A stretch of DNA of 64,000 nucleotides from Verrucomicrobiia bacterium (GCA_036524155.1 DATDCV010000045.1:260-64259), one strand, 5' to 3'. Numbered from the stretch's first letter, positions 20,430-62,397 are shown. Made by a program: numbers and translations. Notes: generated by a model from the letters alone, not told the origin.

Positions 20430-21767
20430 ATGAAACGTTCCTTCACTTCGGCGGCGCGTTACCTGGTGGTTTGTTTGCCGTTGCTGGCTGGATTGCCGGC
20501 GGTGGTCTGCGTCTCGGAGGCGGCGCCGACCATCGTCTCGACCGTGCCCGCCAACATGGCCACCGGTGTTTCGCCGTCGGCGGCGATCGTCGTTACCTTC
20601 AGCGAGGCGATGGATCCGAACGCCACCTCCGCCCAGTTCATGGACGTGACCACCACTCAATTCCTCACCACGTTCAGCTTTGCCTGGAGCAGCGCCAACA
20701 AGGTGCTGACGTGCACCCCCACCACGCCCCTGCCCGCAGGACACATGATCTATTGGATGGTCGATGGGAGCAACCCCAGTGGGACACCGCTTGGCGGCAC
20801 TCCCGCGGGAATGTTCACGGTCGCGACCGCCGCTGGGACCGGGTGCGACCCCAACGCGCCGATGGCTTCGTTCACGGTTTCCAAGGGGTGGCTCTATGCC
20901 CAGGCCGATGCCGGGGCGCCTACCCTCGACCCTAATTCGCCCTTTTGCTTTCTGGCCTGCACGACCTTGCCCTGCCCGCGCAACGCCACCAACGTCAACC
21001 TCCAGGCCCCCTCGGGCGCCACGGCCAACATGAGTCTCTCACCGCTGCCCGGGCATCTCACCCTCACGGAGTGCGGCTTTGCAGGCCCCGCTGCCCTCGA
21101 TGCGGCCTATGCACCTGGCAACTATGTGTTCAATATTCAAGCCGTCGGATCCAACCAGGCCGTGACGCTGAATTTTCCGGCGAGCCTGACACAACCGCCG
21201 GCGCCGCACCTTGCCAATTACCTTGCAGCCCAGTCGATCAATCCCGCCCAACCGTTCACGCTTGCCTGGGACCCCATGAGCGGCGGCTCCACCGCCGACT
21301 GGATTTATGTCGAAATTTATGGCGGCGCTTTTAAGACGCCGAGCGTCGGCGAGGCCGGCGCGCTCAACGGCACCGCCACCGGGGTGATCATTCCCGCCGG
21401 CGCACTCCAGCCCAATCAGTCCTATTCCGGTTCTGTCACTTTCTACCACTACCTGCTTCTTACCAACGGGGCTTCGCATCTGGCGTTGACCTATCGGGCC
21501 TCGATCACTGAGTTCGACCTGAAGACATCTGCCGCGACGAGCACGCTGATCCTCGCCAACCCCGTTTGGGCCGGGCCCGGCCATTTCAGCTTCGAGGTCA
21601 ACTGCTCCACCGGCCAGTCGCTCGTGGCGGAATACTGTGCCGATCTGGCCTCACAACAATGGGTTACTCTTTGGTCAACCAACAGCCCGTCGCAGCGCGT
21701 GCGGTTCACCGACCCGCAGGCCGCGACCAGCGGCCACCTGTATTATCGCGTGCGCACCGGCCCGTGA
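20430..21767 (+). CDS. Secreted protein: SbsA/Big_5-like Ig domain N-terminus plus YRV...P-COOH C-terminal domain
   Basis: Signal peptide. APTIVSTVPANMATGVSPSAAIVVTFSEAMDP is Big_5-like. C-terminus ...SQQWVTLWST...GHLYYRVRTGP. Confidence 0.85.
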   Translation: MKRSFTSAARYLVVCLPLLAGLPAVVCVSEAAPTIVSTVPANMATGVSPSAAIVVTFSEAMDPNATSAQFMDVTTTQFLTTFSFAWSSANKVLTCTPTTPLPAGHMIYWMVDGSNPSGTPLGGTPAGMFTVATAAGTGCDPNAPMASFTVSKGWLYAQADAGAPTLDPNSPFCFLACTTLPCPRNATNVNLQAPSGATANMSLSPLPGHLTLTECGFAGPAALDAAYAPGNYVFNIQAVGSNQAVTLNFPASLTQPPAPHLANYLAAQSINPAQPFTLAWDPMSGGSTADWIYVEIYGGAFKTPSVGEAGALNGTATGVIIPAGALQPNQSYSGSVTFYHYLLLTNGASHLALTYRASITEFDLKTSAATSTLILANPVWAGPGHFSFEVNCSTGQSLVAEYCADLASQQWVTLWSTNSPSQRVRFTDPQAATSGHLYYRVRTGP

Positions 21768-21769
21768 GG

Positions 21770-21880
21770 TATCGCCTCAGTCTTGGGTCGGAGCGCCGAT
21801 TTTCAATCGGCTTGAGCGAACCGACGGCCTCCTGTAAGCCGAGTAAAACTCGGCGCTCCGACCCAAGACTGAGGGAGTAC
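21770..21880. mobile_element. MITE copy 3
   Basis: 111-bp element flanked by a perfect direct repeat cccgtgagg (21761-21769 and 21881-21889). The left repeat contains the TGA stop of the upstream gene. Confidence 0.9.
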
Positions 21881-22888: not shown

Positions 22889-23402
22889 GCGTATGAGGCT
22901 GACCGCGACACCAGCCTTCGGGCCGAGGCCCGGGGGGAAAGCCGGAAAAGAAACGCGAACCCGCGGGAGGCTCGCCAAGCGATCTTCATTCCATTTGCTC
23001 GGCCTGCTACTCGTCGCGCTGAGCCTGCCGGCCCCCGCAGGCCGGAGCGCGGAGATTGCTCCCGACCCGACCGAGGTGGGGCGGAAACTATACCAGAATC
23101 GCTGCGCGAAGTGCCACCAGATGTACGATCCCGCGAAATATACTGACACCCAGTGGCAGACGTGGATGACGAAGATGGGCAAAAAGGCGAAGCTTCGTCC
23201 CGCCGAAAAGCAAATGGTCTTGCAGTATGTCGAACAAAGCCTGAGGGCATCTGTGAAGACAAGCGCGCGGGTGACCAAGGCCCGGTCGCCCGGCGGTGCC
23301 GAGGCGGCAGGGAGCCGCATCGCGATAGAGGAAGGCCAGCCCTCGCCGCCAGACTGGTCCGGTCACAGTCCTGGGGGCGCCTCGCTCACGGCTCCGCGGT
23401 AA
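22878..23402 (+). CDS. Small exported c-type-cytochrome-like protein
   Basis: Single CAKCH (CxxCH) haem motif after a hydrophobic segment [15 protein letters not shown]. Overlaps the previous gene by 11 nt. Confidence 0.5.
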
Positions 23403-26151: not shown

Positions 26152-26206
26152 AAATGCCGGCAGGCTACGCCGGGCTTGGCGCCGCGCGGCGCCGGTAACG
26201 TTCCCC

Positions 26207-45157: not shown

Positions 45158-46798
45158 ATGAAACACCTTGTTGTCGCCGGCATGTTATTGTTCGGGTCTA
45201 TTCTCGGTGGGTATGGCCTCACCAACAAGGTCTTGATCATCGGGATCGACGGCACCATGTGCAGTGCACTCGCGGTCGCCCGCACGCCCAACCTCAACGC
45301 GCTGACTACCAACGGCTGTTACTCCGTCCGCGCGGTGACGCACCCCGTCACGCACAGCGCCGCGTGTTGGTCGAGCATGTTCACCGGGGTTTGGGGCGAC
45401 AAGAACCTGGTGAACGATCCGAACAACAGTTTTACCGGCAACAACTTTGCGAATTACCCGAGCTTCTTCAGGCGTCTCGAAACGTTTAACAGCAACTGGA
45501 ACACGGTTTGTTTTGCCCGCTGGTCACCCTTGCTGACCGTCGTGCCGGACGCGGACGTGAAGACCGCTTTCTCCTCCGATGCGGCGGTCACCGCCGAAAC
45601 GTGCCGACAGTTGACGAACTCGAATCCGGACGTGCTGTACATGATCCTGCTGGACGTCGATTCGGCGGGGCACTCTTACGGGTGGGGACCGGCGGTGACG
45701 AATTACGTGCGCGCGATCGAAACGGCCGATCGCCAGGTCGGCCAAATCCTGGCGGCGCTGCTGAGCCGGGCTACCTACACGAATGAGAACTGGCTGGTCA
45801 TCGCGCTGGCTGACCACGGCGAGCATGATAACCCGGACCTCGAGAAATCGCGCATCACGTGGCACATCGTCAGCGGGCCGGCAGCCGCCCGGGGCGTCAT
45901 GTGGCCTTCGCCGAGCATCGTGGACGTTTGCACGACGGTGCTGACGCACATGGGGGTGCCGATTGATCCCGCGTGGAAACTCGATGGGCGCGTGGAAGGC
46001 CTGCCTCTCCCGCCGACCGCCTACGGGGCCAACCTTGTTTTCAACGGCAATGCCGAGTCCAACTCCGGCACGGACAACTACGCCACCAATCGCGGGATTG
46101 CCTGGTGGTTCGATGTGTCGAGCACGACGCTGGGGGTTTACGGCTCGAACACCAATTTCCCTTCGGCCGCCTCGCCGGGGCCTCCGGACCGCGGCTCGAA
46201 CTTCTTCCTGGGCGGCACTGCCGACGCCTTCATCACGCAACGCATCGACGTTTCCGACCTGGCCGCTGACATTGATGTTCCCGGCGTCGACTACAGCCTC
46301 CGGGGCTGGTTTGGCGGGGCCACGACGGAGGGAGACCATGCGTTCCTCACCGCGACTTTTCTGAATGCGACCAGCACTGCGTTGGCCTCCGCTGTCGTCG
46401 GCAACGTCACGCCTATCGATCGCGGAGGGGTGACGGGTTTGATCGAGCGGACCGCTGGCGGAGGTTTGCCGGCCGGCACCCGCTTTGTCGAGTTCGCGCT
46501 AACCAACCGGGTGATCTCAGGAAAGAACGATGCGGCGGCGGATAGTCTGTCATTTGTGCTCACGCCGAGGCCGGACCCGCGCTTCCCGATCGCGGGCCTG
46601 ACTCGGACAGCCGACGGCTGGCAGGTGGAGTTCACGGGGTATCAAGACCGGGTTTACACCCTGCAGCGTTCGGAGGATCTCGTGTCGTGGATCGATCTGG
46701 TCTCCGGGGCTGCCGCCGGGGACGGCCCGATGGCGCTGGCCGACACCAACGCCCCGCCCGACCGCGCCTTCTATCGCGTCAACTCCCGCCGCCCATAA
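45158..46798 (+). CDS. Secreted nucleotide pyrophosphatase/phosphodiesterase (alkaline-phosphatase superfamily) with YRV...P-COOH C-terminal domain
   Basis: LIIGIDG, TPNLNAL, DVDSAGHSYGWG, ADHGEHD metal-site motifs. C-terminus ...YTLQRSEDLVSWIDL...RAFYRVNSRRP. ORF starts at 45134; a signal-like Met is at 45158. Confidence 0.85.
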   Translation: MKHLVVAGMLLFGSILGGYGLTNKVLIIGIDGTMCSALAVARTPNLNALTTNGCYSVRAVTHPVTHSAACWSSMFTGVWGDKNLVNDPNNSFTGNNFANYPSFFRRLETFNSNWNTVCFARWSPLLTVVPDADVKTAFSSDAAVTAETCRQLTNSNPDVLYMILLDVDSAGHSYGWGPAVTNYVRAIETADRQVGQILAALLSRATYTNENWLVIALADHGEHDNPDLEKSRITWHIVSGPAAARGVMWPSPSIVDVCTTVLTHMGVPIDPAWKLDGRVEGLPLPPTAYGANLVFNGNAESNSGTDNYATNRGIAWWFDVSSTTLGVYGSNTNFPSAASPGPPDRGSNFFLGGTADAFITQRIDVSDLAADIDVPGVDYSLRGWFGGATTEGDHAFLTATFLNATSTALASAVVGNVTPIDRGGVTGLIERTAGGGLPAGTRFVEFALTNRVISGKNDAAADSLSFVLTPRPDPRFPIAGLTRTADGWQVEFTGYQDRVYTLQRSEDLVSWIDLVSGAAAGDGPMALADTNAPPDRAFYRVNSRRP

Positions 46799-49695: not shown

Positions 49696-51219
49696 ATGAA
49701 AACCCTCGCCATCATTCTCGTGCTCGCCGCCTCCTACCTGGCCGCCCTGGGCCAGGGGCAGGTGCAGTTCCAGAACTACGTTCCGTCCACCACGCCAGCG
49801 ATCGATGCGCCGGTGTATTTGTACCATATGGGCGGCGCACGCCCGGATTATAGCAATCCCTTGTGGCGGGTCGCCTTGCTTGGCGGGCCAACCACGGCCA
49901 CCCCAGCCTCTTCAACGAACGTGGGTACGCTCAGCCAGTTGTATCATCCCACAATCACGAGCCTCACCTGGTTCAACTTCGGCATGGGCACTAATGCCGG
50001 CTATGCAGACGTTCGCACGAACGCTGCCAGGGTTGTCCCCGGTGTGGACTGGGGCGGCACCGCCCTGGTTCAAGTGGTGGCCTGGGAGGGCAACTACTAT
50101 GACTGGGCTGACGCCTACTCCTGGGCGGTGTCCGGCGGCCCTTATGTGCTCATTGGCATGTCAAACCCGCTGACTTTGAGGTTGCCCAACGGCCCTACGG
50201 ACGGAAACCTCACCTTCCTCTGGGGTTTGAACTCTTTCGCACTGGGGTGGGCTGGAGGTCCGTCCTTCTGGAGTTACACGGGACCAGCAGACCAAACAGT
50301 CAGTGCCGGCGATCCCGTAACACTAGCCGTTTCTGTCGATGCCTGGCCCGTTCCTGATTTCCAATGGTATTTCAATGGGGTTGCCCTCGCGGGAGCCAAC
50401 TCGAGTTGCCTCCAAATCCCGAGCGCCCAGCCGACGGACGCGGGCAGTTACTATGCAATTCTGACGGATCCCATGTTTTTGCTTTGGACTTACACCACTG
50501 GTGTCGCCACAGTGACAGTGCGGGTGCCCCCGGGTATCGCGTTACAGCCTCAAAGCCAGACGGCAGTCGCCGGCTCCGGCACCGTGTTTCGGGTAAGCGC
50601 GACTGGCGACGCGCCTTTGGGCTGCCAATGGTTCTTCAACGGCAGCACCCCGCTCGGCACGGGGACTTCGCTCAAGCTCACCGCGCTCGAATCCCGGAAC
50701 ATCGGCGCCTACACGGTGGTCGTCACCAATGTTTGGGGCGCCGTCACCAGCACGCCGGCGATGCTGAATGTGATTGCACCGGTGGACACGACCCGGGCCC
50801 TTGGTGTCGTTGGCACCGCCCAGAACGGGACCGCTATGAACCTGGAGACCGCCAGGCAATTATCCGGGGCGCCGAGCTGGCTACCGCTGGTCGAAAACGT
50901 GATGGCCGGAACCAACACCAGCCAGGTGTATGTCGATTGGCCCATGCAGCCGGCCCCTGACTTCCTGCGGCTTTACCGGGCATGGCAGACGAATGGTGTG
51001 AACCAGCCGCCGATGTTGAGCATCCACCTGGTTTCGGGGATCACGTTAACCGGAACCGCTGGCAGCTCGGTGCGCATCGATTACATCAACCAAATCGGCC
51101 CGACGGATGCCTGGGTGACGCTGGCGACTGTCCCGCTGACCAACACCTCGCAACTTTACTTCGACACTTCAGCCATCGGCCCGCCGCCGAGGCTGTACCG
51201 GCTGGTGTCGCCGCCGTAG
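49696..51219 (+). CDS. Secreted mosaic protein S1: signal peptide, GQVQF-N-domain, 2 Ig-like domains, common C-terminal domain
   Basis: MKTLAIILVLAASYLAALGQGQVQFQNY. FQWYFNG and CQWFFNG are I-set-like Ig motifs. Ends VRIDYINQIGPTDAWVTLATV...RLYRLVSPP. Confidence 0.88.
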   Translation: MKTLAIILVLAASYLAALGQGQVQFQNYVPSTTPAIDAPVYLYHMGGARPDYSNPLWRVALLGGPTTATPASSTNVGTLSQLYHPTITSLTWFNFGMGTNAGYADVRTNAARVVPGVDWGGTALVQVVAWEGNYYDWADAYSWAVSGGPYVLIGMSNPLTLRLPNGPTDGNLTFLWGLNSFALGWAGGPSFWSYTGPADQTVSAGDPVTLAVSVDAWPVPDFQWYFNGVALAGANSSCLQIPSAQPTDAGSYYAILTDPMFLLWTYTTGVATVTVRVPPGIALQPQSQTAVAGSGTVFRVSATGDAPLGCQWFFNGSTPLGTGTSLKLTALESRNIGAYTVVVTNVWGAVTSTPAMLNVIAPVDTTRALGVVGTAQNGTAMNLETARQLSGAPSWLPLVENVMAGTNTSQVYVDWPMQPAPDFLRLYRAWQTNGVNQPPMLSIHLVSGITLTGTAGSSVRIDYINQIGPTDAWVTLATVPLTNTSQLYFDTSAIGPPPRLYRLVSPP

Positions 51220-51449: not shown

Positions 51450-52964
51450 ATGAAAACTTTCGCCATCACTCTCGTGCTCGCCGCCTCCTGCCTGTCCGCG
51501 CCGGCCCAGGGGCAAGTGCAATTCCGGAATTATGTTTCGAACACAACGCCCGCAGTCGATGCGCGGGTGTCCCTCGGGGGCGCCTCAGGGCCTTTTCCTG
51601 ACTCGAGCAATACTGCCTGGCGCGCCGCGCTGCTCGGGGGGCCGACGACCGCGACACCGGCCTCCACGGAGGGTCCGGGCACGCTCAGCCTGTTGCACCA
51701 TCCCACGATAACGACCCTGACCTGGGTCAATTTCAGAAGCGGGACCACGCCCCCTGCGGCGGCCGGATACGTGAATTATAGCGCCGGCCCTGCTCGCGAG
51801 GTGCCGGGAGTGGATTGGGGCGGCACCGCACTGGTGCAGATGGTCGCGTGGCAGGGCCCTTATACGACATGGATTGATGCCTATAACGCCTTTCGGTGCG
51901 GCGTGTTCGATGCTCGCATCGGGTTCTCAAACCCGTTGACCTTGCGGTTGCCCTACGGTCTTACTGATACACGCTTTACCTATCTCTGGGGCTTGAATTG
52001 GTTCTCAATGGCAAACTTGAGTTCTCCCTACTTTAAGTATAACGGAGGACCGGACGATCAGACTGTGATCGCCGGCGATCCCGTCACACTGAGCGTTTCC
52101 TCGGAGGGATGGCCCGCTCCCGATATCCAGTGGTACTTCAACGGCAATGCCATCCCAGGGGCCAACGATGGTTCCTGGCAGATTCTGCACGCGCGACCTG
52201 AAGACGCCGGCGGTTACTTTGCGGTCATGTCGTGGTGCGGCGAGTACACCTCGCGTGTCGCGACTGTGACGGTTCGCTTGCCACCGGGCATTTCTGCTCA
52301 ACCGCAGAGCCAAACAGTGGCAGCCGGCTCGGGTACGCAGTTGCGCGTGAACGCCACTGGCGACGCGCCTTTGAGCTACCAATGGTTTTTCAACGGCAGC
52401 ACCTCGCTCGGCATCGGGACTTCGCTCAACCTCGCCTCGCTGCAACCGCAGGACTCAGGCGCTTACACTGTCGTAGTTACCAACGTCTGGGGAGCCGTCA
52501 CCAGCGCACCCGCGATGCTGAGTGTGGTTGCGCCCGTGCCCATGGCCCTGGCACCGGGCGTTGTTGTTCACGCGCAAAGCCAGACCTCCTGGAACCTGCA
52601 GTACGCCGACTCTTTTGCGCCCACCAACTACTGGATACCCATGGGCGAGATGTTCCTGGGGACCAACACCAGCCAGGTGCTTGTCGATTCGCCGCCGTTG
52701 CCGGGGGCGCAACGCTCCTACCGGGCGTGGCAGCAGAGCAGCACCAGTCAGCCGCCAGTCTTAAGCATGGAACTGGTCCCCGCGATCCGGTTAACCAACG
52801 CCGTCGGCAGTTCGGTGCGGATTGACTACATAAACCAGGTGGGGCCCATCGACGCCTGGGTGACGCTGGCCACGGTCACCGTCACTGGCACGTCGCAACT
52901 TTACTTCGATAAATCAGCCATAGGCCAGCCGCCGAGGGTGTACCGGGTGGTGACTCTCCCATAG
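51450..52964 (+). CDS. Secreted mosaic protein S2 (same architecture as S1)
   Basis: MKTFAITLVLAASCLSAPAQGQVQFRNY. IQWYFNG and YQWFFNG Ig motifs. Ends VRIDYINQVGPIDAWVTLATV...RVYRVVTLP. ORF 51351.. trimmed to ATG 51450. Confidence 0.88.
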   Translation: MKTFAITLVLAASCLSAPAQGQVQFRNYVSNTTPAVDARVSLGGASGPFPDSSNTAWRAALLGGPTTATPASTEGPGTLSLLHHPTITTLTWVNFRSGTTPPAAAGYVNYSAGPAREVPGVDWGGTALVQMVAWQGPYTTWIDAYNAFRCGVFDARIGFSNPLTLRLPYGLTDTRFTYLWGLNWFSMANLSSPYFKYNGGPDDQTVIAGDPVTLSVSSEGWPAPDIQWYFNGNAIPGANDGSWQILHARPEDAGGYFAVMSWCGEYTSRVATVTVRLPPGISAQPQSQTVAAGSGTQLRVNATGDAPLSYQWFFNGSTSLGIGTSLNLASLQPQDSGAYTVVVTNVWGAVTSAPAMLSVVAPVPMALAPGVVVHAQSQTSWNLQYADSFAPTNYWIPMGEMFLGTNTSQVLVDSPPLPGAQRSYRAWQQSSTSQPPVLSMELVPAIRLTNAVGSSVRIDYINQVGPIDAWVTLATVTVTGTSQLYFDKSAIGQPPRVYRVVTLP

Positions 52965-53502: not shown

Positions 53503-56370
53503 ATGAAAACTCTGTCCATACTTGTCGCCGGCGCGTTGGCGCTGGCTTTTACTCATACTGTCTCTGGGGCGCCCGGCGATCTGGATCCCGCTTTTGACAT
53601 CGGTTCCCGCATTAACGCCTGGGTCCGGGCGATTGCGGTGCAAAGCGACGGAAAGGTCGTGATTGGCGGGGATTTCACTACTGTGCATGGCGCGGTGCGA
53701 AACCGCCTCGCGAGGCTGAACGCGGATGGCCCGGTCGATAGCGGTTTTGAACCTGATGTCTCGGGCGAGACCATCGTAGGGTTGATCTTGGCCGGAGACA
53801 AAGTGCTCATCGCGGGGGAATTGGGAACGATAAATGGTGTGCCGCGCGCAGGGGTGGCGCGCCTGAACGCAGACGGTTCGCTGGACGCTTCGTTTGCGGA
53901 CGGGCTGGCGGATATGACGAACTCTGCCTATCGGGTCATCGCGCGCCAACCGGACGGCAAAGTGCTGGTTGGCGGCTTTCCTCGTTCGATTGGCAGCAGC
54001 GTCACCGATCTCCACAGGTTGAACCAGAACGGCAGCCTGGACCCTTCGTTCGCACCGGTGCTGACGGGGCCAAACCCGTGGATCGGAGCATTAGCAGCGC
54101 AGAGTGATGGCAAAATCCTGGTGGCCGGAACCTTCCAGGCGGTCAACGGCGTGGGCGCAACAAACTTCGCACGGCTCAACCCGGACGGCTCTTTCGACGG
54201 GTCCTTCACAAATGCTTTAGCTGGACGCGACGAGGAGCCAAAGTGCCTCGCGATTCAACCTGACGACAAAATCATCGTGGCGGGGTACTTTCTTTTGGGC
54301 CAGGTCCAATTGAGAGTCGTCCGCCTCAACCCGGACGGTTCGATCGACCATTCGTTTGCCGCGTCTGAGCCGGACGGCACGGTGTATTCCCTCGCATTGC
54401 AGCCGGACGGAAAGATCCTGCTCGGCAACAATGTCCCGCCTTGCTGCATGCGGTTGAACGCCGACGGAACAAAGGACACCGCGTTTCTGAACGGCCTGGC
54501 CGGACCGAATAGCAGCGTCATCGTCCTGGCCGCCCAACCTGACGGCAAAATCGTCATCGGCGGCTTTTTCGAGAGGGTCAACGACGTGGAGTGCACCCCC
54601 CTGGCCCGCCTGAATACCGACGGCTCGCTCGACACCTCGTTCCCTGAGGGCCCTCCGGGACCGAATTTCAATCTCACCGGGCTGGTGGTTCAGCCTGATG
54701 GCAAAGTGGTCATTGCCGGGTCTTTCTATTCGATTAATGGAGTCGCGTGCTCGAGCGTCGCGCGCCTTAACCCGGATGCCACAGTGGACCAAAGTTTTTC
54801 CCCGCCACCCGTTAGCACTCTCAATGAGACACGCTTGACCCTTCAACCTGATGGCAAAATCCTCGTCTATAGCTGGTACGGACTGAGCCGCATTAACCCC
54901 GATGGCACAGGGGATGACCGGTTCCTCGCCGGAACTTCCGTACCCTTGCACGGAATTGTTGCGGCGGTAGGCCTCCAACCCGACGGCAAGATCGTTGCCG
55001 CTGGCCGGATCCCGTCAGTCGGATCAATCGCCCGGGCTAACCTGGTTCGTCTGAACCCTGACGGTTCGCTGGACCTGTCCCTGGCTTGCAGCGTAGGGAA
55101 CGCCGACAGTTGGCTCCATGCCCTGGCCATTCAGCCCGATGGGAAGGTGCTTGTCGGCGGATGGTTTGACACCCTCAATGGAAAGCACAGGCCGTCCCTC
55201 GCCCGCGTAAACCGCGACGGTTCGAGCGATCCTTCATTCCTGAATGGCCTGGATGGGCCGAATGCAGTCGTCACCGCCATTCTTGTTCAACGAGATGGGA
55301 ACATCATCATTGGAGGGGAATTCACTGCTGTGAACGGCACGCCCGTCAACCGGATGGCACGCCTTCACGCCGACGGCTCGCTCGATGACACATTTGTCGC
55401 CGGCCTGAATGGCACGGTTTACTGCATGCGACTGCAGGGCGACGGCAAGGTGCTCCTGGGCGGCGGGTTTAGCGCCGTGAACGGCCTAACGGCCCATAAC
55501 ATCGCCCGGCTCAATCTCGACGGCTCGCTGGATCCCTCTTTCACGGTCAGCACGGATTATTCGGTGCTTGCCCTGGAACAGCAGCGGAACGGTAAGATTA
55601 TGATTGGCGGCCAATTCGACGTGGTAAACCAAACGCCCAATCGCTTTGTCGCCCGGCTCATGGGTGATTTCTCTGTGCCGTCGATTCTTACCCAACCGCA
55701 GTCCATGACGGTCGAGACCGGCGCCCCCTGCCGGTTTTCAGTGAGGCCCGCGGGGTATCTCCCGGTCGGTTACCAATGGTACTTCACCTCGCAGCAAACC
55801 ACTGCGCCACTCGTGGGCTGCACGAATGCGAGTCTTGAGTGGCCGTCAGCCAGCCCAGTTCTGGCCGGCGCTTACACTGTCGTTCTTACGAACGATGGTG
55901 GAGCCGTAACCAGCGCGCCGGCTATGCTGAGCGTCATTCCATCGGTTCAAAGAAGATCGGTTCCCGGCCTGAATGTGCGGGGCCAGCCTGGCGGAACCAT
56001 CCGCCTGGACTATGTTCCTCTTCTGGCGGATAACCCCGGTTGGGCTGTGTTCGGCACGGTTGAGATGGCTACCGCTTCGCAGTGGTGCTTCGACACCGAG
56101 ACGCCGCTGGCGGCTGCGCGGTTTTACCGCGCCTGGCAGCCCACCGATCCGGTCAACCCCCCGGCCATTGACCTGCGGCTCGTCCCGGCGATTACGCTCA
56201 GCGGCTCGATCGGCAGTTCGGTGCGCATCGATTACATCAACCAAATCGGCCCGACCGATGCCTGGGTGACGCTGGCGACCGTCACGCTCACCAACACTTC
56301 GCAGGAGTATTTCGATACCTCCGCCGTAGGCCAGCCGGCGAGGGCGTACCGGCTGGTGACTCTTCCATAG
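53503..56370 (+). CDS. Secreted mosaic protein S3: signal peptide, ~14 delta-60/DUF5122 beta-propeller repeats, Ig-like domain, common C-terminal domain
   Basis: Repeats of ...ARLN(A/P)DGSLD.SF...QPDGKI(L/V)(V/I)GG.F..VNG. YQWYF Ig motif. Ends VRIDYINQIGPTDAWVTLATV...RAYRLVTLP. Trimmed to ATG 53503. Confidence 0.9.
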   Translation: MKTLSILVAGALALAFTHTVSGAPGDLDPAFDIGSRINAWVRAIAVQSDGKVVIGGDFTTVHGAVRNRLARLNADGPVDSGFEPDVSGETIVGLILAGDKVLIAGELGTINGVPRAGVARLNADGSLDASFADGLADMTNSAYRVIARQPDGKVLVGGFPRSIGSSVTDLHRLNQNGSLDPSFAPVLTGPNPWIGALAAQSDGKILVAGTFQAVNGVGATNFARLNPDGSFDGSFTNALAGRDEEPKCLAIQPDDKIIVAGYFLLGQVQLRVVRLNPDGSIDHSFAASEPDGTVYSLALQPDGKILLGNNVPPCCMRLNADGTKDTAFLNGLAGPNSSVIVLAAQPDGKIVIGGFFERVNDVECTPLARLNTDGSLDTSFPEGPPGPNFNLTGLVVQPDGKVVIAGSFYSINGVACSSVARLNPDATVDQSFSPPPVSTLNETRLTLQPDGKILVYSWYGLSRINPDGTGDDRFLAGTSVPLHGIVAAVGLQPDGKIVAAGRIPSVGSIARANLVRLNPDGSLDLSLACSVGNADSWLHALAIQPDGKVLVGGWFDTLNGKHRPSLARVNRDGSSDPSFLNGLDGPNAVVTAILVQRDGNIIIGGEFTAVNGTPVNRMARLHADGSLDDTFVAGLNGTVYCMRLQGDGKVLLGGGFSAVNGLTAHNIARLNLDGSLDPSFTVSTDYSVLALEQQRNGKIMIGGQFDVVNQTPNRFVARLMGDFSVPSILTQPQSMTVETGAPCRFSVRPAGYLPVGYQWYFTSQQTTAPLVGCTNASLEWPSASPVLAGAYTVVLTNDGGAVTSAPAMLSVIPSVQRRSVPGLNVRGQPGGTIRLDYVPLLADNPGWAVFGTVEMATASQWCFDTETPLAAARFYRAWQPTDPVNPPAIDLRLVPAITLSGSIGSSVRIDYINQIGPTDAWVTLATVTLTNTSQEYFDTSAVGQPARAYRLVTLP

Positions 56371-56645
56371 CACGCAGAGAACAAAGAATCACGGATGAAC
56401 ACGGTTACGGAAGAACGAAAGGGCCTCCTCTCTCCTAAGGGCGGTGGGGGCGCGGAATGGAAAGCCGAAGCCCGAAATCCGAAATCCGAAACCCGAAAGA
56501 AATCCGAAGGCCGAGATCCGAACAGCACTGAAGGCGCCGCAACTGGTTCCCCCTCTCCGCCTTTGGGGGAGAGGGGACAGGGGAGAGGTGGCCCTGGAAG
56601 GTTTGTGGTCCTCATAAACGTTAAACTAAACAGTCGATACTCCAT
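56371..56645. repeat. Conserved intergenic cassette (short form)
   Basis: Starts cacgcagagaacaaagaatcacggatgaacacggttacggaagaacgaaagg, near-identical to 60003-. GEG repeat at 56549-56593. Confidence 0.85.
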
Positions 56646-59600
56646 ATGAAGACTCTTCCCACCGCGCTCGTGCTCGGCGCCTCCTGCCTGGCCGCACTGG
56701 GCCAGGGACAGGTCCAGTTCAGGAACTACTCCTCCACCACAACGCCGACAATTAACGCGCCGGTTTATCTCGACGGCGGAATACCGGGCCAATTCGCCGA
56801 CAGCAGTTGTCGCGCGGCGTTAATCGGCGGGCCAACCACGGCCACGCCGGCGTCGCTCGACAGCGCAGGCACACTCCCGATGCTTTACAATCCAACGATA
56901 ACGACTCTAACCTGGGTTACTTTCCGCGACCCACCTAACGCCGGTTACGTGAACACCGCGAACGCTGCGCGGCTGGTGCCGGGCGTCGATTGGGGCGGCA
57001 CCGCCCTGGTGCAGATGGTCGGTTGGAAGGGGAACTACAATACCTGGGCGGAGGCTTTTGCCGCCTGGCAAGGGGGGGACTTGACTGTGCTGATCGGCTT
57101 CTCAGAGCCGCTGGTCCTGAGGCTGCCCACCGGTCCGACTGACTCCTATCTTACCTATCTCTGGGGATTGAAACCGTTTACCATCGGCGGCGGCTGCCTG
57201 GGCCCCTATTTTATGGGCTTCACGGTGGTGCCGGTGAGCCAGACGGTAAACCCGGGCGAGTCAGTCACCTTCTCTGCGGGCGCTCAGGCGTGTCCGTACC
57301 CCGTCTTCCAATGGTACTACAATGGCTCTCCGATCGCCGGGGCAATCCAAAGTCACTACCAGATTGCGTCGGCTCAACCTTCCGACGCCGGGGACTATTA
57401 CGCCATTTTGTCAGGCGCGGGGTGGGGCTTACGGACCAGCCCAACGGCCACGCTCGCTGTGCGGCCTTACTCACTGAGCTTTATCCAGCAACCCTCGAGC
57501 CAAACCGTAGCGGCGGGCCAGGCAGTGGATTTCCGAGCGGTCGCCGGGGGAGCTGTTCCCATGTTTTACCAGTGGTTTTTCAATGTCACGAATGCCATCA
57601 GCGCGGCGACAAATTCTATTTTGCATTTGCCGGCGGTGTATTTCCCGCAATCGGGCACGTACGAGGTCGTGGTCAGCAACGCCGTCGGCGCCATAACCAG
57701 TTCCCCGGCCCTGTTGACAGTGCTGGATCCTTACATTTCCAGGCAGCCAAACGATCTGTCACTCCGTGCCGGCCAAACAGCATTTTTATCGGTTGACGCC
57801 GGAGGCTCGCCACTGCTGAGCTGTCAATGGCTGAAGGATGGCGCGTTATTGAGCGATGGCGGCAACCTGTCAGGCGCACGTACGCCCGTCTTAACAATCT
57901 CGAACGTTCTGGGCGCGGACGCCGGAGGTTACGCGGCATGGGTCAGCAATCTCTATGGCGCGGCCACCAGCGCGGTGGCGCGCGTGACGGTGCAGGATCC
58001 GTTCATCACCAGCCAGCCCGTCGGCCAGCGGGTTAATGAAGGTGACGACGTGGTCTTCAGTGTCCAGGCGGGCGGCACAGCGCCGCTCGCGTTCCAATGG
58101 TTGAAAGATGGGGTGCCCCTGGCCGACGAGCTCAACGTGTCCGGGTCACACACCGCCACCCTCACGCTGAAGTCGGTGGATAGCACCGACCAGGGCGCCT
58201 ACCGGGTGATCGTCAGCAATCGTTTCGGTATGTTGTCCAGCGCAGACGCGACGCTCGCCGTAGGTCCTCAAGTCAGTTTCGCGGTGTTACACACTTTCAC
58301 GGGGGCCGATGGCAATGAGCCGTCGCCGAATCTGTTTGTGTCGGGCTCGACACTCTACGGAACTACCATCAACGGCGGCTCAAGCGGAGGAGGGACGGTT
58401 TTTAGGCTCAACACGGACGGCAGCGGCTTTGCGGTTTTGAAGAATTTTCCCGTCGGCACGGTCGAGCAAGGAGCGTTTGGAGGGGTGGTTCCCTCTGGCG
58501 GAAGGTTATACGGGACGACCTGGGGGGATGGCACTCCGTCGGGCTGCGGCACGGTGTTCGCCCTGAACACCGACGGCAGCGGTTATTCCGTCCTGCACCA
58601 GTTCACCGGCGGCGATGGCCGTGAGCCTATGGGCAGCTTGCTGGTCCGGGACGGGATGCTCTTCGGGACGACTTATGAAGGGGGCACCTCATACGGGACG
58701 CTATTCAGGATGGACACGAACGGCCAGAGCCTGACAGTCCTCCACAATTTCACCGGCAACGACGGCGCGTATTCCCACTCGGGCCTGGTGGCCTCAGGCA
58801 GCACGTTGTACGGGACCACTGCCAGCGGTGGCAGCTCATTTAGCGGCCTGGTGTTCCGCATGGAGGTCGATGGCAGCGGCTTCGCGGTCCTGAAGGAATT
58901 TGGCGCTGACGGCGGATGGCCGAGTGACAAGTTGGTTCTGTCCGGGCCAACTTTGTACGGCACCACGCGCTACGCCGGCCAAGGCTGCGGTTCGGTGTTC
59001 AAGCTCAACACCGACGGGACAGGATTCACAGTGCTCAAACAATTCACGACCAATGACGTGGGAATCGATCCCTGGGACGGTCTGGTCATCAGCGGCAGCA
59101 CGCTTTATGGAAGCTTGTTGGGGGGCACTGTGGGCATTGGAGCTGTCTACAGGGTCGGCACTGACGATGCGGGTTACACCGTCTTGAAGACCTTCAGCGG
59201 CGGCAGCGATGGGGCTCGTCCCTATGCGCTCGTCTTGTCTGGCGATACCTTGTACGGGGCAACTCAAATGGGCGGCGCCTTGAACCACGGCGTTATCTTC
59301 TCGATGTCCGTAGCTGGGCCGAGCGTGCTGTCGCCGCCCGTCAGTCAGACCGCAGAAGCGGGCACTGCGGTGGCTTTTCGGGCCCGGGGCCGCGGCGGTT
59401 CCTCACTGACTTACCAATGGCTGTTCAACGGCACTAACTTAATCGGAGCCACGTCCACCAACGCACTGCTGCGACTTCCGGCGGTCCAATTCGCCGACGC
59501 TGGCTCTTACTCGGTAATTCTCAGTAACGTTTATGGTTCGGTAACGAGTGCGCCCGCCATGCTGAGCGTCATTTCGCGCGTGGAACGGCGGCCGGTGGCG

Positions 59601-60002
59601 GCTCTGAGCCTGGGCGGTGCGATCGGGCAATCCTTGAACCTGCAAATCACGTCCGCTCTGCAGCCCGGACCTGCCTGGGCGCCGCTGGATACGGTTACAC
59701 TTACAAACAGCGGCCAACTCTACGTGGACGTTTCCCCGTTGTCAGCCGAACGGTTCTATCGTTCACGGCAAGATGAGAGCGCCGGCATCGTTCCCTCCCT
59801 GGCGGTTCATCTCATACCAGCCATCAAACTGACCGGTGCCATCGGCAGTTCCGTGCGCATCGATTACATCAACCAGGTAGGGCCAATCGATGCCTGGCTG
59901 CCGCTAGCGACCGTCACCCTAACTGATACTTCGCAGGAGTACTGGGACACGTCGGTAATAGGCCAGGCGCCGAGGCTGTATCGGTTGGTGACTCTGCCAT
60001 AG
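56646..60002 (+). CDS. Secreted mosaic protein S4: signal peptide, GQVQF-N-domain, 4 Ig-like domains, ~7 GloVer (Gloeo_Verruco) repeats, Ig-like domain, common C-terminal domain
   Basis: MKTLPTALVLGASCLAALGQGQVQFRNY. FQWYYNG/YQWFFN/CQWLKDG/FQWLKDG/YQWLFNG. LYGTT..GG..G.GTVF.LNTDGSG repeats. Ends ...RLYRLVTLP. Confidence 0.9.
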   Translation: MKTLPTALVLGASCLAALGQGQVQFRNYSSTTTPTINAPVYLDGGIPGQFADSSCRAALIGGPTTATPASLDSAGTLPMLYNPTITTLTWVTFRDPPNAGYVNTANAARLVPGVDWGGTALVQMVGWKGNYNTWAEAFAAWQGGDLTVLIGFSEPLVLRLPTGPTDSYLTYLWGLKPFTIGGGCLGPYFMGFTVVPVSQTVNPGESVTFSAGAQACPYPVFQWYYNGSPIAGAIQSHYQIASAQPSDAGDYYAILSGAGWGLRTSPTATLAVRPYSLSFIQQPSSQTVAAGQAVDFRAVAGGAVPMFYQWFFNVTNAISAATNSILHLPAVYFPQSGTYEVVVSNAVGAITSSPALLTVLDPYISRQPNDLSLRAGQTAFLSVDAGGSPLLSCQWLKDGALLSDGGNLSGARTPVLTISNVLGADAGGYAAWVSNLYGAATSAVARVTVQDPFITSQPVGQRVNEGDDVVFSVQAGGTAPLAFQWLKDGVPLADELNVSGSHTATLTLKSVDSTDQGAYRVIVSNRFGMLSSADATLAVGPQVSFAVLHTFTGADGNEPSPNLFVSGSTLYGTTINGGSSGGGTVFRLNTDGSGFAVLKNFPVGTVEQGAFGGVVPSGGRLYGTTWGDGTPSGCGTVFALNTDGSGYSVLHQFTGGDGREPMGSLLVRDGMLFGTTYEGGTSYGTLFRMDTNGQSLTVLHNFTGNDGAYSHSGLVASGSTLYGTTASGGSSFSGLVFRMEVDGSGFAVLKEFGADGGWPSDKLVLSGPTLYGTTRYAGQGCGSVFKLNTDGTGFTVLKQFTTNDVGIDPWDGLVISGSTLYGSLLGGTVGIGAVYRVGTDDAGYTVLKTFSGGSDGARPYALVLSGDTLYGATQMGGALNHGVIFSMSVAGPSVLSPPVSQTAEAGTAVAFRARGRGGSSLTYQWLFNGTNLIGATSTNALLRLPAVQFADAGSYSVILSNVYGSVTSAPAMLSVISRVERRPVAALSLGGAIGQSLNLQITSALQPGPAWAPLDTVTLTNSGQLYVDVSPLSAERFYRSRQDESAGIVPSLAVHLIPAIKLTGAIGSSVRIDYINQVGPIDAWLPLATVTLTDTSQEYWDTSVIGQAPRLYRLVTLP

Positions 60003-60528
60003 CACGCAGAGAACAAAGAACCACGGATGAACACGGTTACGGAAGAACGAAAGGACCTCCTCTCCCCGGCCCTCTCCTCCAAAGGAGGAGAGGGAGGAAG
60101 CCGGCGTGGCTGGTTCCCCCACTCCGCTAGCGGAGCAGAGGGAGAAAGCCGAGGTCAGTTGAAGAACGGGCTGCGGTTTCTGGTCCCCCTCTCCGCCTTT
60201 GGGGGAGAGGGGAAAGGGGAGAGGTGGCCGTCACTTTCGGAAGCGTTCATGGGGAGGGCGAAACCCCCGTTCGACAGCACCGAAGGTGCGGCCACTCAGC
60301 AGCCTTGGGAACTCGGCCCTTGTAGGAGACGACGTAAGGAGTCTCTAATCAAGACCAGGACGCTCCGAAATTTGAGCGCGCTCGCCGTCGGTGGCATCCG
60401 CGAGAACATCAGAGACTCCTTACGTCGTCTCCTACAAGCCGGAGAACTGTTCGCCGGGAGAGGGGGCCGTTGGTTTGTGGAGCCGTCCCGGTTGCGATCC
60501 GCGTTTTGAACAAACGTCGATATTCCCT
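60003..60528. repeat. Conserved intergenic cassette (long form, 526 bp)
   Basis: Collinear with 52965..53502. GEG repeat at 60185-60229. 28-bp inverted repeat at 60319-60438. Confidence 0.9.
60319..60438. other. Second copy of the perfect 28-bp inverted repeat with 64-nt spacer
   Basis: Arms 60319-60346 and 60411-60438 are identical to the 53287 copy. The spacer differs at 12 of 64 positions. Lies 91 nt upstream of the S5 start. Confidence 0.9.
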
Positions 60529-62397
60529 ATGAAAACCCGATTTGTGCGCTATTCACCGATACGCGGCTTGACCGCACTTGTGGTGCTGCTTTGGGCCTTG
60601 CAGTCAGGCATGCAGGCAGCAACGTTCTCGAATCCGGCGCCCGTCCTCATCCTGGACCATACGAATGCCAGTCCCTACCCATCGAGCGTAGTAGTCGAGG
60701 GTGTGGCTGGGCGAATAACGTCCGTGACGACGACTCTCCTGGGACTGTCACACGCCTTTGTTTCTGACGTGGATGTGATGCTCGCCGGGCCATCCGGCCA
60801 ACCCGTGCTGCTGATGGCGCATGTCGGCGCGGGGAGTTCAGCAAGCAACCTGGACCTCACGTTTGATGATTCGGGAGCAACGCTGCCTGAGATGGGGGTC
60901 GTCGTTTCGGGGACTTACCGTCCGACCCAGTTCGGTGCCACGCCGAGCTTTTCGCCACCCGCGCCCGCGGAGCCGTATGGACCCGCGCTTTCAAGCCTCA
61001 CAAACCTGACCGCCAACGGGACGTGGAGCCTGTTTGTGCGCGATGATGCGCTGGGCGACAATGGGGTCCTGACGAAAGGATGGTCGCTCACCATCACCAC
61101 GGAAGGCATCCCCCCGGTTATCGCGCCGATGTCCTCGCTGACGGCCGAAGAAGGTTCCACCATTCGCCTGCCGGCCCAGGTTTCGGGAGATGCGCCCTTC
61201 AGTTATCAGTGGTATTTTAACGGAAACACGCCGATTCCCGGCGGGACGCGCTCGGCCTTGCAGTTGCCGGATGTCCGTTCGACGAACACCGGGGCTTACT
61301 CCGTGGTGGTGGCCAATACCTTCGGGGCCGTGACCAGCGCGCCCGCGATGCTCAGCGTCATTCCGCCAGTCGAGAGGAGCACGGCTCCGGGGCTTTTGCT
61401 GACCGCCGACGCGGGAACTGATCTCTACCTGGAGTACGCAAACTCGCTGACTCCTTCGCCCAACTGGGCCGGACTCGCCACCGTGAGAATGGGAGGGGTA
61501 TTTGGTCCCACTTCGCAGTGGTATTTCGACGGAGTCGCAGCCTCTGCTGGGCAGCGTTCTTACCGGGTATGGCACGACAACGAGGGGAGCATTGTTCCGG
61601 GATTGCAGTTGTACCCGGTTCCGGCAATCATGCTCAGAGGCGTGGCGGGCAACTCGGTCTGGATCGACTATATCAACCAGGTCGGCCCCACGGACGCGTG
61701 GGCGCAGCTTGCTACCGTGGTGCTGGCGAACAGTTCCCAATTTTACTTCGACACTTCGGCAGTGGGCCAACCGACGAGACTGTACCGGGCCGCGACAACG
61801 TTTAAGAACCTGGATTTCGAGCTGGCGGCTGGGATTCCCGCCACGCCCGGATACCCTGCCAGCGCCAACTTCGATCAGGCTCTCCCCGGTTGGAGCGGTT
61901 ACTGCGGGGCGGGGCAGCAAATGGCAGTGCAATACGACTATGAATGGCTGGACACAGCCGGAATCGCCATTTTTGATACGAATTGCGTTTCTGAATCCGT
62001 GACAGGAGTACTTCACCGCCGCTATTGTGTCTGCCTGTATTCCGGGTTTGAGCCTGGCGTGCAGCCTTACCACGATGTCCAAACGTGGCTGGCCCAGACC
62101 GCCCGCGTTCCGCCCAGTGTCTCAAGCATTTTGTTGAACTATAAACGCTCTCGGGACTGGGGTGATGGAGAAATCCAGGTGACGTTCAACGGAATCGGCA
62201 TTTCCTTGCGCTTTGTGAGCTCGGGCCTGGACGGTTCCAGTGTCCTGGGCGGGGATGTCAGCCAGTTTGCAGGTCCGGTTGGAGAATTGCGGGTGATTGC
62301 GCCGGTCTCGCTTTCACATTACCCCTCCCACTGGCGGAACATCTTCATGCTCGATTATATCCGCTTCTCCACTACGCCGTTAAGCCCATGTCTGTGA
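60529..62397 (+). CDS. Secreted mosaic protein S5: signal peptide, proprotein-convertase P-domain-like module, Ig-like domain, common domain (internal), extra ~200-aa C-terminal domain
   Basis: SHAFVSDVDVMLAGPSGQ...ANGTWSLFVRDDALGDNGVLTKGWSLTIT is P-domain-like. YQWYFNG. VWIDYINQVGPTDAWAQLATV...RLYRAATTF is followed by NLDFE...GWSG... Trimmed to ATG 60529. Confidence 0.88.
   Translation: MKTRFVRYSPIRGLTALVVLLWALQSGMQAATFSNPAPVLILDHTNASPYPSSVVVEGVAGRITSVTTTLLGLSHAFVSDVDVMLAGPSGQPVLLMAHVGAGSSASNLDLTFDDSGATLPEMGVVVSGTYRPTQFGATPSFSPPAPAEPYGPALSSLTNLTANGTWSLFVRDDALGDNGVLTKGWSLTITTEGIPPVIAPMSSLTAEEGSTIRLPAQVSGDAPFSYQWYFNGNTPIPGGTRSALQLPDVRSTNTGAYSVVVANTFGAVTSAPAMLSVIPPVERSTAPGLLLTADAGTDLYLEYANSLTPSPNWAGLATVRMGGVFGPTSQWYFDGVAASAGQRSYRVWHDNEGSIVPGLQLYPVPAIMLRGVAGNSVWIDYINQVGPTDAWAQLATVVLANSSQFYFDTSAVGQPTRLYRAATTFKNLDFELAAGIPATPGYPASANFDQALPGWSGYCGAGQQMAVQYDYEWLDTAGIAIFDTNCVSESVTGVLHRRYCVCLYSGFEPGVQPYHDVQTWLAQTARVPPSVSSILLNYKRSRDWGDGEIQVTFNGIGISLRFVSSGLDGSSVLGGDVSQFAGPVGELRVIAPVSLSHYPSHWRNIFMLDYIRFSTTPLSPCL

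Follow-up and report, generated by a model that had tools for sequence, protein, structure and literature searches.

An uncatalogued C-terminal domain superfamily ending in FYR...Pro on exported Verrucomicrobiota proteins, a candidate surface-anchoring or sorting module

The FYR...P pattern at the C-termini of exported proteins in a 64,000-nucleotide stretch of DNA from a Verrucomicrobiae bacterium (this whole stretch is hereafter called the window) is a real, uncatalogued domain superfamily. Its members, here called FYR-P domains, fall into two classes: a single-copy generic class, represented in the window by proteins A and B and usually ending in YR-x3-P, and an array class, represented by S1-S5, in which a D1-D2 pair lies behind an Ig domain and the end is YR-x4-P. 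As a new domain family, the FYR-P domain is a candidate surface-anchoring or sorting module, a role that is plausible but unproven. The account as a whole joins the superfamily and its two classes to S5-type fusions and to a function that we infer, in which a cell-proximal module would retain exported cargo at the envelope or target it there; it is tentative, at somewhat short of an even chance. The genes and domains concerned are as follows.

20430..21767 (+): gene A, HEY5909436.1, "Ig-like domain-containing protein"; signal peptide, Big_5, generic-class C-terminal domain
21570..21764 (+): A generic-class FYR-P domain, end LYYRVRTGP-COOH; g4 profile, hhalign, phmmer
45158..46798 (+): gene B, HEY5909456.1, "alkaline phosphatase family protein"; signal peptide, NPP/phosphodiesterase, generic-class C-terminal domain
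46598..46795 (+): B generic-class FYR-P domain, end AFYRVNSRRP-COOH; g4 profile, hhalign, AF2
49696..51219 (+): gene S1, HEY5909460.1; signal peptide, ~190-aa N-terminal domain, two Ig domains, D1, D2
50527..50775 (+): S1 cassette Ig domain, limits approximate
50776..50985 (+): S1 D1, internal, ...RLYRAWQ
51010..51216 (+): S1 D2, terminal, ...RLYRLVSPP-COOH
51450..52964 (+): gene S2, HEY5909461.1; S1-like architecture
52272..52529 (+): S2 cassette Ig domain, approximate
52530..52730 (+): S2 D1, ...RSYRAWQ
52755..52961 (+): S2 D2, ...RVYRVVTLP-COOH
53503..56370 (+): gene S3, HEY5909462.1; signal peptide, delta-60/DUF5122 propeller, Ig, D1, D2
55678..55938 (+): S3 cassette Ig domain
55939..56136 (+): S3 D1, ...RFYRAWQ
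56161..56367 (+): S3 D2, ...RAYRLVTLP-COOH
56646..60002 (+): gene S4, HEY5909463.1, "choice-of-anchor tandem repeat GloVer-containing protein"; signal peptide, N-terminal domain, four Ig domains, GloVer repeats, Ig, D1, D2
59310..59576 (+): S4 cassette Ig domain, approximate
59577..59762 (+): S4 D1, ...RFYRSRQ
59793..59999 (+): S4 D2, ...RLYRLVTLP-COOH
60529..62397 (+): gene S5, HEY5909464.1; signal peptide, P-domain-like region, Ig, D1, D2, 196-aa extension
61111..61353 (+): S5 cassette Ig domain
61363..61572 (+): S5 D1, ...RSYRVWH
61597..61803 (+): S5 D2, internal, degenerate tail RLYRAATTF, without terminal Pro
61807..62394 (+): S5 extension, homologous to the N-terminal domain of other array-type proteins
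62515..64000 (+): sixth array gene, running past the window end; Ig_3 present, C-terminus outside the window

The six Pro-ending C-termini listed in the original prediction were all confirmed as ORF ends, namely LYYRVRTGP in A (stop at 21767), AFYRVNSRRP in B (46798), RLYRLVSPP in S1 (51219), RVYRVVTLP in S2 (52964), RAYRLVTLP in S3 (56370) and RLYRLVTLP in S4 (60002), and the internal copy reported in S5, RLYRAATTF, was located at 61777-61803. None of the seven window proteins has a hydrophobic helix or a basic tail at its C-terminus, as had been stated, and Sec-type signal peptides were recognized by inspection on all seven using the NCBI start sites. Trp, Asp, Tyr and Arg are aligned and invariant across 12 of 12 window copies. 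The array genes lie in tandem, with repeated flanking elements. At least eight domain-bearing genes (seven complete and one partial) occupy the 64 kb of the window contig, and the domain was also found on seven contigs of MAG SPRUCE 520, so that many copies per genome are indeed observed.

The homologous repeat unit spans ~65-70 aa instead of the ~100 aa proposed originally, and S1-S5 each contain two tandem copies, D1 and D2, a duplication that had been overlooked. D1 is internal and ends in ...RFYRAWQ, D2 ends in ...YR-x4-P-COOH, and the conserved array cassette, Ig+D1+D2, covers ~230 aa. The superfamily consensus is roughly G..G..y.le.S.dL..W..l.t.....g...f.D......rFYRv..P-COOH. The domain is predicted to be a beta-sandwich of ~65 residues and five to six strands, the last of which (FYRxx) continues to the C-terminal Pro. 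In AF2 models, D1-D2 formed a single rigid unit (pLDDT 91.5, pTM 0.81), and the domain of B had six strands, ending with FYRVNSR (pLDDT 82). The predicted structure contains no flexible linker from Ig to D1, whose first strand begins at a conserved ERR motif; the module may therefore simply end a rigid stalk.

The claim that the domain is absent from curated libraries was upheld. The C-terminal regions of the seven window proteins had no match in Pfam or NCBIfam, isolated copies had none in Pfam even at E<=10, no PDB sequence matched the domain, and a literature search found no description of it. Foldseek comparisons of two models with the PDB gave best E values of 0.019 and 0.13, with weak resemblances (TM ~0.5) to Ig/FN3-like domains, the amylase C-domain and pilin domains. 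Ig/FN3-like domains are likewise small all-beta sandwiches with an early-strand Trp and a last strand containing Tyr-x-Arg/Val, but the FYR-P domain packs five to six strands into ~65 aa, is strongly restricted to the C-terminus and has no Ig, FN3 or Big model match at E<=10. Membership in these Pfam families was rejected on the missing profile match and on an hhalign value of 0.1 % with the neighbouring Ig_3 domain.

The C-terminal pattern is beyond chance. A loose motif census of ORF ends returned 30 matches against ~12 expected, the excess being exactly the window FYR-P proteins and their relatives, and the profile statistics are far stronger than this census. For A and B, a chance likeness of short C-terminal motifs could be argued from two null results: an array-only HMM gave E 3.1 for A and no hit for B, and direct hhalign of either protein with D1 or D2 was not significant. 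An independent profile (g4) was built from 33 single-copy generic relatives, with A, B and every array copy left out. Among 737 window ORFs it nevertheless retrieved the five array proteins followed directly by B at E 4.5e-6 and then A at E 1.6e-5, the latter matched over residues 403-455 of its 458, with a clear gap to the next matches, which were noise (E >=0.18). By hhalign, the generic profile matched A at 92.7 % and B at 88.3 % over 62-63 collinear columns and D1 and D2 at 96 %, against 0.1 % for the alignment of the adjacent Ig_3 domain. Shuffled sequences reached at most 9 bits compared with 26 bits for the real ones, predicted strand order was identical, and A matched the terminus of L008 in phmmer (E 4.5e-5). 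Chance likeness is scarcely credible in the face of these comparisons. The suggested homology of A and B to the array domain thus stood at the superfamily level, through the generic class as a bridge, but not as a direct match; the two are distant relatives of the array domain and belong to the generic class found in related contigs.

An exhaustive search placed the D1-D2 module in 1,486 protein clusters at 50 % identity. The bearers are exported Verrucomicrobiota proteins, from this Verrucomicrobiae bacterium and its relatives; a strict heuristic recognized a signal peptide in 56 of 109 full-length representatives, the remainder having mostly a late h-region or a truncated gene call; this count is a soft one. 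The domain proved to be nearly always C-terminal, as anticipated: across 660 kb of related contigs it occupied the extreme C-terminus in 117 of 118 array-type proteins and in 31 of 31 generic-type proteins, the generic-class sample being biased because its loci were retrieved through array-type genes. It was last in 148 of 149 complete proteins of related loci, and 33 terminal and two internal copies were still found by a profile from which the FYR...P columns had been removed. Strict restriction to C-termini did not hold, since D1 and the tandem copies of L001 (a triplet) show that the fold can double as an ordinary structural repeat. Pro was the terminal residue in 113/120, 137/149 and 25/31 relatives compared with 26/262 (10 %) other ORFs of the same contigs; its share is 81-92 % among array- and generic-type proteins against a 10 % background. 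This Pro could merely guard against carboxypeptidases. The cargo upstream is diverse, in agreement with the original description, and includes Big_5, NPP, delta-60 propeller, GloVer, LRR_5, RCC1, NHL/HYR, lectin, FN3 and Ig, the GloVer repeats of S4 being named "choice-of-anchor" in NCBIfam.

Conservation is 0.2-0.3 in the cargo and climbs to 0.7-0.8 in D2. Between D2 copies, DNA identity is 69-77 % and dN/dS is 0.15-0.29 at dS 0.6-1.4, substitution values that point to purifying selection and not to homogenization by gene conversion. The domain might otherwise be regarded as a conserved 3' cassette that recombination keeps alike and that would serve tandem paralogues as a handle for exchanging cargo, with no selection on protein function. 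Tandem arrays with repeated flanking elements and the domain shuffling evident among paralogues would suit such a cassette, but the D2 values just given, the equal protein-level conservation across different MAGs and metagenomes, and the occurrence of A and B as unlinked single genes do not; the substitution pattern has largely refuted it, and it is very improbable. Exchange between array genes is suggested in S5, whose extension matched P0191 residues 53-238 (E 3e-41) and L016 63-250 (E 6e-38). In other array-type proteins, homologues of this extension are N-terminal and directly follow the signal peptide, and in P0122 and P0260 they are C-terminal. Because the extension matches the N-terminal domain of array-type proteins, S5 is an apparent fusion of two neighbouring array genes, and the few internal copies found in proteins of the S5 type would have arisen by such fusion.

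Criteria for recognizing C-terminal sorting signals have been published (Haft, bioRxiv 10.1101/2023.06.07.544157), and the FYR-P domain agrees with the non-tripartite ones (1, 2, 6, 7 and 8), in that many pairs of proteins are alike in the signal region alone and most bearers have a signal peptide by the heuristic. A tripartite signal of the kind in criteria 3-5 (PEP-CTERM, LPXTG, GlyGly-CTERM, MYXO-CTERM) was rejected, the tails having neither a hydrophobic helix nor an Arg cluster, and window ORFs contained no PEP-CTERM-like tail and no PF07589 match. PEP-CTERM, of the exosortase system (PF07589), is a short tripartite signal of ~25 aa composed of a motif, a TM helix and an Arg cluster, whereas the FYR-P domain is soluble and folded, ~65 aa long within a cassette of ~140-230 aa, and has none of the three parts. 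Both occur in many copies per genome, on diverse cargo with N-terminal signal peptides, and both take the same position on paralogues of the same organisms as an alternative "choice of anchor". Proteins with a common N-terminal domain (43-54 % identity over ~190 aa) end either in Ig-D1-D2 or in PEP-CTERM, with PF07589 matches on L011 1454-2086 and L078 3032-3643 of 24.8 and 22.7 bits (Pfam cutoff 20.7); this swap was observed in one N-terminal-domain family only. Insofar as close paralogues bear the PEP-CTERM signal in its place, the domain is a credible candidate for an anchoring or sorting module.

An ordinary terminal domain with no sorting role, such as a stalk end or a glycan-binding, EPS-binding or oligomerization module, is a somewhat unlikely alternative, under which Pro would only cap the last strand and block exoproteolysis and the end position would reflect gene assembly. 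It is consistent with the generic small beta-sandwich fold and its TM ~0.5 resemblances to Ig/FN3-like, amylase C-domain and pilin structures, with the tandem and internal copies, with the tight joining of the module to the preceding Ig and with the absence of any machinery found. A structural repeat would, however, be expected often at internal positions, and the domain is last in 148/149 proteins and predominantly terminal with the motif-less profile as well; it is the terminal copy that is best conserved, with the cargo left to diverge freely, and the PEP-CTERM swap would be unexpected for a mere spacer.

The T9SS CTD (Por_Secre_tail, TIGR04183/PF18962) is similarly a folded beta-sandwich (~70-100 aa) with which many otherwise unrelated Sec-exported proteins of one genome end, without a TM helix or a basic tail. 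In that system the sortase PorU removes the CTD and the cargo becomes surface-attached. The FYR-P domain has a CTD-like layout, with all-beta AF2 models, a terminal position, signal-peptide proteins and varied cargo. No match to the type A T9SS CTD models (TIGR04183, PF18962) was found in the C-terminal regions of the seven proteins, nor any Pfam match in the isolated copies, and the resemblance to the CTD drawn originally was not borne out in structure, no CTD entry appearing in the Foldseek top 50 for either model. The two also differ in host (Verrucomicrobiota for FYR-P, Bacteroidota for the CTD), in the duplication of the array class and its rigid joining to Ig without a cleavage linker, and in the terminus, which is fixed in length and Pro-ending, with no translocon or sortase found. 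T9SS is described as Bacteroidota-specific (PMC4804311, PMC5445135). No T9SS component genes were found within the window, which derives from a Verrucomicrobiae MAG, and a search of the window and 90 loci yielded neither the co-occurring machinery gene envisaged earlier nor any recurrent conserved non-cargo neighbour. A signal for outer-membrane translocation akin to the T9SS CTD, namely a folded C-terminal beta-sandwich read by dedicated Verrucomicrobiota machinery and maybe cleaved, with the cargo glycan-attached, would account for the fixed-length, Pro-ending terminus and for the replacement of PEP-CTERM in paralogues, and it follows CTD logic as described in PMC4804311, a terminal beta-sandwich on many unrelated signal-peptide proteins. 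Such a signal is nonetheless doubtful and quite unlikely, given the missing CTD model match and CTD structure, an Ig-D1 junction that has no cleavage linker and passes into the first strand at the ERR motif, the absence of a machinery candidate nearby and a D1-D2 duplication more like that of binding or anchoring modules than of a signal.

SLH, CWB2 and dockerin are non-covalent anchoring or docking modules in tandem repeats, mainly described in Gram-positive bacteria, and their terminal module too is often duplicated and better conserved than the variable cargo. Their fold and motif differ from those of the FYR-P domain, which had no sequence match to their Pfam families. In the preferred account, the FYR-P domain would be the cell-proximal module of surface-displayed proteins and, after Sec export, would retain the variable N-terminal cargo (propellers, LRR, Ig, lectins and some enzymes) at the cell envelope or target it there. 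This would most probably occur through the terminal copy, which is strongly conserved and would bind a conserved envelope component non-covalently, and the domain would fill the role that PEP-CTERM has in close paralogues. It is unlikely that the domain is a functional counterpart of the T9SS CTD, exchangeable for PEP-CTERM, and serves as the recognition module of a new Verrucomicrobiota sorting system. If this is true, the FYR...P-COOH domain would direct adhesin-like proteins and enzymes, hundreds in all, through the outer membrane or onto it via dedicated machinery.

The window is a contig from a Verrucomicrobiae MAG and encodes seven proteins bearing the C-terminal domain, a beta-sandwich of about 65 amino acids ending in ...YR-x3/4-P-COOH, hereafter called the FYR-P domain. 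Two outlying proteins (A and B) carry a single copy, and five (S1-S5) are encoded by a tandem array.

Window proteins bearing the FYR-P domain (start, protein, accession, annotation)
20430: A, HEY5909436, Ig-like by PGAP
45158: B, HEY5909456, alkaline phosphatase family by PGAP
49696: S1, HEY5909460, NCBI annotation
51450: S2, HEY5909461, NCBI annotation
53503: S3, HEY5909462, NCBI annotation
56646: S4, HEY5909463, choice-of-anchor GloVer by PGAP
60529: S5, HEY5909464, NCBI annotation

The PGAP names, which also include immunoglobulin domain-containing and hypothetical, reflect N-terminal parts only. On inspection all seven proteins begin with a Sec-type signal peptide; such calls, made by eye or with a crude heuristic, are soft results. 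All six C-termini described in the original prediction, and the internal copy in S5, matched the translations exactly. The prediction had overlooked a second tandem copy of about 70 amino acids in each of S1-S5. The first copy, D1, is internal and ends ...RFYRAWQ; the second, D2, ends ...YR-x4-P-COOH and is internal and degenerate in S5. Trp, Asp, Tyr and Arg columns are invariant across all 12 window copies. No Pfam or NCBIfam model covered the C-terminal region of the window proteins, and isolated copies had no Pfam match even at E ≤ 10. A published description of the domain was not found in the literature searched, where absence is not proof of absence.

Proteins with the duplicated D1-D2 module behind an Ig domain (the array class) are numerous. 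A profile of ten array copies, used in a word-indexed search returning only matches near the query length, retrieved 263 database proteins, all N-terminally truncated D1-D2 modules; among the 120 matches listed, 113 had a terminal Pro and 107 fitted (Y/W/F)R-x4-P-COOH. The same type of search, limited to matches near query length, returned nothing for A or B. Exhaustive HMMER searching of 1.84 billion representatives with a D1-D2 profile gave 1,486 clusters at E ≤ 1e-3, 325 of them reaching E ≤ 1e-30, and among the best 149 of the 1,486 a terminal Pro was present in 137 and the motif in 128. Ninety relative loci were fetched (660 kb in total; 10 from named genomes and 80 from metagenomes). All ten named-genome loci were from Verrucomicrobiota, seven of them contigs of one MAG. 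Array-type ORFs numbered 119 in these 90 loci, 118 of them complete; of the complete ORFs, 117 stop no more than 5 residues past the module, and 114 contain exactly two copies. Across 93 array-type proteins, column identity was 0.2–0.3 in the cargo and 0.7–0.8 in D2. The rise begins about 230 amino acids before the stop, at the Ig domain, so that Ig–D1–D2 constitutes a conserved cassette. Window D2 copies share 69–77 % DNA identity with dS of 0.6–1.4 and dN/dS of 0.15–0.29, and are therefore old duplicates; the domain is under strong purifying selection. These values rule out gene conversion as the source of D2 conservation, and they effectively exclude the explanation that the domain serves as a recombination handle.

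Homology of A and B with the array domain had been proposed from the pattern of their ends. At the level of direct similarity this failed: an array-only HMM searched on the window ORFs gave E 3.1 for A and none for B, and direct hhalign comparison of either with the array domain was insignificant. At the superfamily level the proposal holds, by way of a generic class of single-copy proteins. This class, sampled only in contigs fetched via array-type genes, comprised 33 proteins in the loci, or 34 counting B, with 31 non-identical tails. Pro is the last residue in 25 of the 31 tails, and 22 end YR-x3-P-COOH; among other ORFs on the same contigs Pro is last in 26 of 262. A profile of the 33 proteins, built without A, B or array copies, was searched on all 737 window ORFs.

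Comparisons with the generic-class profile
Profile search, five array proteins: E 8e-10 to 4e-6
Profile search, B: E 4.5e-6
Profile search, A: E 1.6e-5
Profile search, next-best window ORF: E 0.18 or higher
hhalign, A: 92.7 % (62 columns)
hhalign, B: 88.3 % (63 columns)
hhalign, D1: 96.4 %
hhalign, D2: 96.3 %
hhalign, neighbouring Ig_3: 0.1 %

Since the generic profile bridges A, B and the array domain in HMM searches, hhalign comparisons and shuffling controls, they are homologous at the superfamily level. Chance resemblance between short C-terminal motifs is effectively excluded, as shuffled A and B scored ≤9 bits and the real sequences 26 bits. A loose iterative HMM search drifted into the upstream Ig_3 domain; the controlled hhalign comparison showed no Ig relationship and ruled out a diverged Ig domain. 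A C-terminal position was borne out in all but one of the complete array-type ORFs and in every generic-class protein found (loci and B), where the domain lies at the extreme C-terminus. With the FYR…P columns removed, the profile recovered 33 terminal copies and two internal ones, both tandem copies in one locus (L001). Of the three tandem generic-class copies in the L001 ORF (5665-8088), FYR...P is retained by the last alone (EFYRAVQP*), with ...MEFFALLAG and ...MEFFDLLAG at the ends of the two internal copies.

The AlphaFold2 model of S3 D1–D2 (pLDDT 91.5, pTM 0.81) has five strands per repeat, and the high pTM indicates that D1 and D2 form one rigid unit. The B terminus, modelled from an alignment of the 12 window copies only, reached pLDDT 82 and pTM 0.69, with strands ordered as in D1–D2 and a final strand, FYRVNSR, reaching the terminal Pro. 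One alternative, which we consider somewhat unlikely, is a terminal domain with an ordinary structural or ligand-binding role, in which Pro merely caps a strand. Foldseek searches of PDB and BFVD gave nothing significant (best E-values 0.019, 0.045 and 0.13). A TM of ~0.5 was reached only by generic Ig/FN3-like, amylase C-domain and pilin sandwiches, and the T9SS CTD was absent from the top 50 matches. Sequence searching of the PDB yielded no match to the domain.

The cargo proved as varied as had been claimed. Besides Big_5 in A and an NPP phosphodiesterase in B, 60 array-type representatives contained Ig_3 (48), DUF5122/delta-60 propellers (11) and BspA-type LRR (11), with further RCC1, FN3, lectin, NHL and SBBP domains; generic-type cargo in the loci included LRR_5, NHL/HYR and FN3. 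No machinery gene was found among the window neighbours, which are housekeeping or unrelated genes only (HemB, YebC, RNase D, HypD, UDP-glucose dehydrogenase and TIR/AAA_35 genes). The latter include adjoining AAA_35 and TIR_2+AAA_35 proteins (23386-26151 and 26207-27772, - strand), a defence-like pair unrelated to the domain. One ORF (32016-34115, +) fuses an ABC-2-type permease to a Rce1-like CPBP intramembrane protease, with no link to the domain found; CPBP proteases have been tied by Haft to Cys-containing C-terminal sorting signals. Clustering of all non-domain ORFs of the 90 loci revealed no recurrent partner gene; the sole large or recurrent cluster consisted of truncated cargo paralogues.

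Two complete ORFs of that cluster (L011 1454-2086 and L078 3032-3643) encode a signal peptide, an N-terminal domain of about 190 amino acids and a PEP-CTERM tail (PF07589) scoring 24.8 bits in L011 and 22.7 bits in L078, above the Pfam gathering threshold of 20.7. The same N-terminal domain heads Ig–Ig–D1–D2 proteins (for example L022 490-2067 and L019 575-2158), where about 190–220 amino acids align with 43–54 % identity. The FYR-P domain and PEP-CTERM can thus stand in for each other in at least one family of paralogues. Because the PEP-CTERM gene of L011 immediately follows an array-type gene, both tail types occur in one organism. An HMM of the S1, S2 and S4 N-terminal domain found no match in the loci at E<=1e-5; BLAST and a lenient HMM placed that domain in distant relation to the one in L011 and L078. 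S4 itself carries "choice-of-anchor" GloVer repeats (NCBIfam). By the criteria of Haft for C-terminal sorting signals (bioRxiv 10.1101/2023.06.07.544157), the FYR-P domain is C-terminal, occurs several times per genome, sits on otherwise unrelated proteins with signal peptides, and has bearers whose homologues carry another signal (criteria 1, 2, 6, 7 and 8). It differs from tripartite signals in lacking their motif, TM helix and Arg cluster (criteria 3–5).

In S5 the degenerate D2 tail (RLYRAATTF) is followed by an extension of 196 amino acids (61807-62394) with no Pfam match. This extension is homologous to a domain that directly follows the signal peptide in other family proteins (P0191 residues 53-238, E 3e-41; L016 residues 63-250, E 6e-38) and is itself C-terminal in P0122 and P0260. 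The simplest reading of these matches is that S5 arose when two adjacent array genes fused; P0122 and P0260 likewise resemble products of fusion between neighbours in an array. Given such gene fusion, the rare internal modules would be derived states rather than counter-evidence to a terminal function.

Several further elements accompany the array.

Features of the array edge and intergenic regions
62515-64000: sixth array paralogue, with Ig_3, running past the window end
51358-51425, 53124-53191, 56526-56593, 60162-60229: 68-nt element, 3' of the stop codon of S1-S4, respectively
53212-53510: ~290-nt element upstream of S3, inverted-repeat arms 53287-53318/53375-53406
60244-60536: ~290-nt element upstream of S5, inverted-repeat arms 60319-60350/60408-60438

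The 68-nt elements are 78-90 % identical, contain the hairpin CCCCCTCTCC-GCCTTTG-GGGGAGAGGGG and could be a shared terminator or REP-like element. The ~290-nt elements (86-90 % identical) have 32-nt arms, 97 % complementary, around a 56-58-nt loop. Rfam gave no match anywhere in the window, these elements included. Upstream of many array-type genes, translation from stop to stop shows a conserved stretch, …HPSITARNERKQSSM… (for example L035 10436-, L052 1969-, L074 2184- and L082 2732-), which indicates that paralogues in other genomes share a conserved 5' leader or promoter region.

The FYR-P domain therefore defines a new, large superfamily confined to C-termini, its end fixed as …YR-x3/4-Pro-COOH, on exported proteins of varied cargo. 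Its function is tentatively proposed to be cell-proximal anchoring or retention, because the module is duplicated, connects rigidly to an Ig "stalk" through no linker that could be cleaved, and is most conserved at its very end. Such properties are more typical of modules for binding or anchoring than of signals that are cleaved off. The rival reading of a CTD-like translocation signal, served by a putative machinery, appears unlikely. As an anchoring or retention module, the domain would hold its varied cargo close to the cell.

Soils, peat, waters and the gut all harbour abundant Verrucomicrobiota. To our knowledge, very little is known of how these bacteria display or release their large adhesin-like and hydrolytic repertoires, and we know of no C-terminal signal catalogued for them other than PEP-CTERM. 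The family delimited here numbers some 1,500 protein clusters or more, with an uncurated C-terminal domain that can be swapped with PEP-CTERM. Its definition would improve the annotation of bearers that are now hypothetical or take their names from N-terminal parts, and would close a blind spot in domain databases even if the domain were merely a terminal structural module. The domain also offers a concrete handle on a candidate new anchoring or sorting route.
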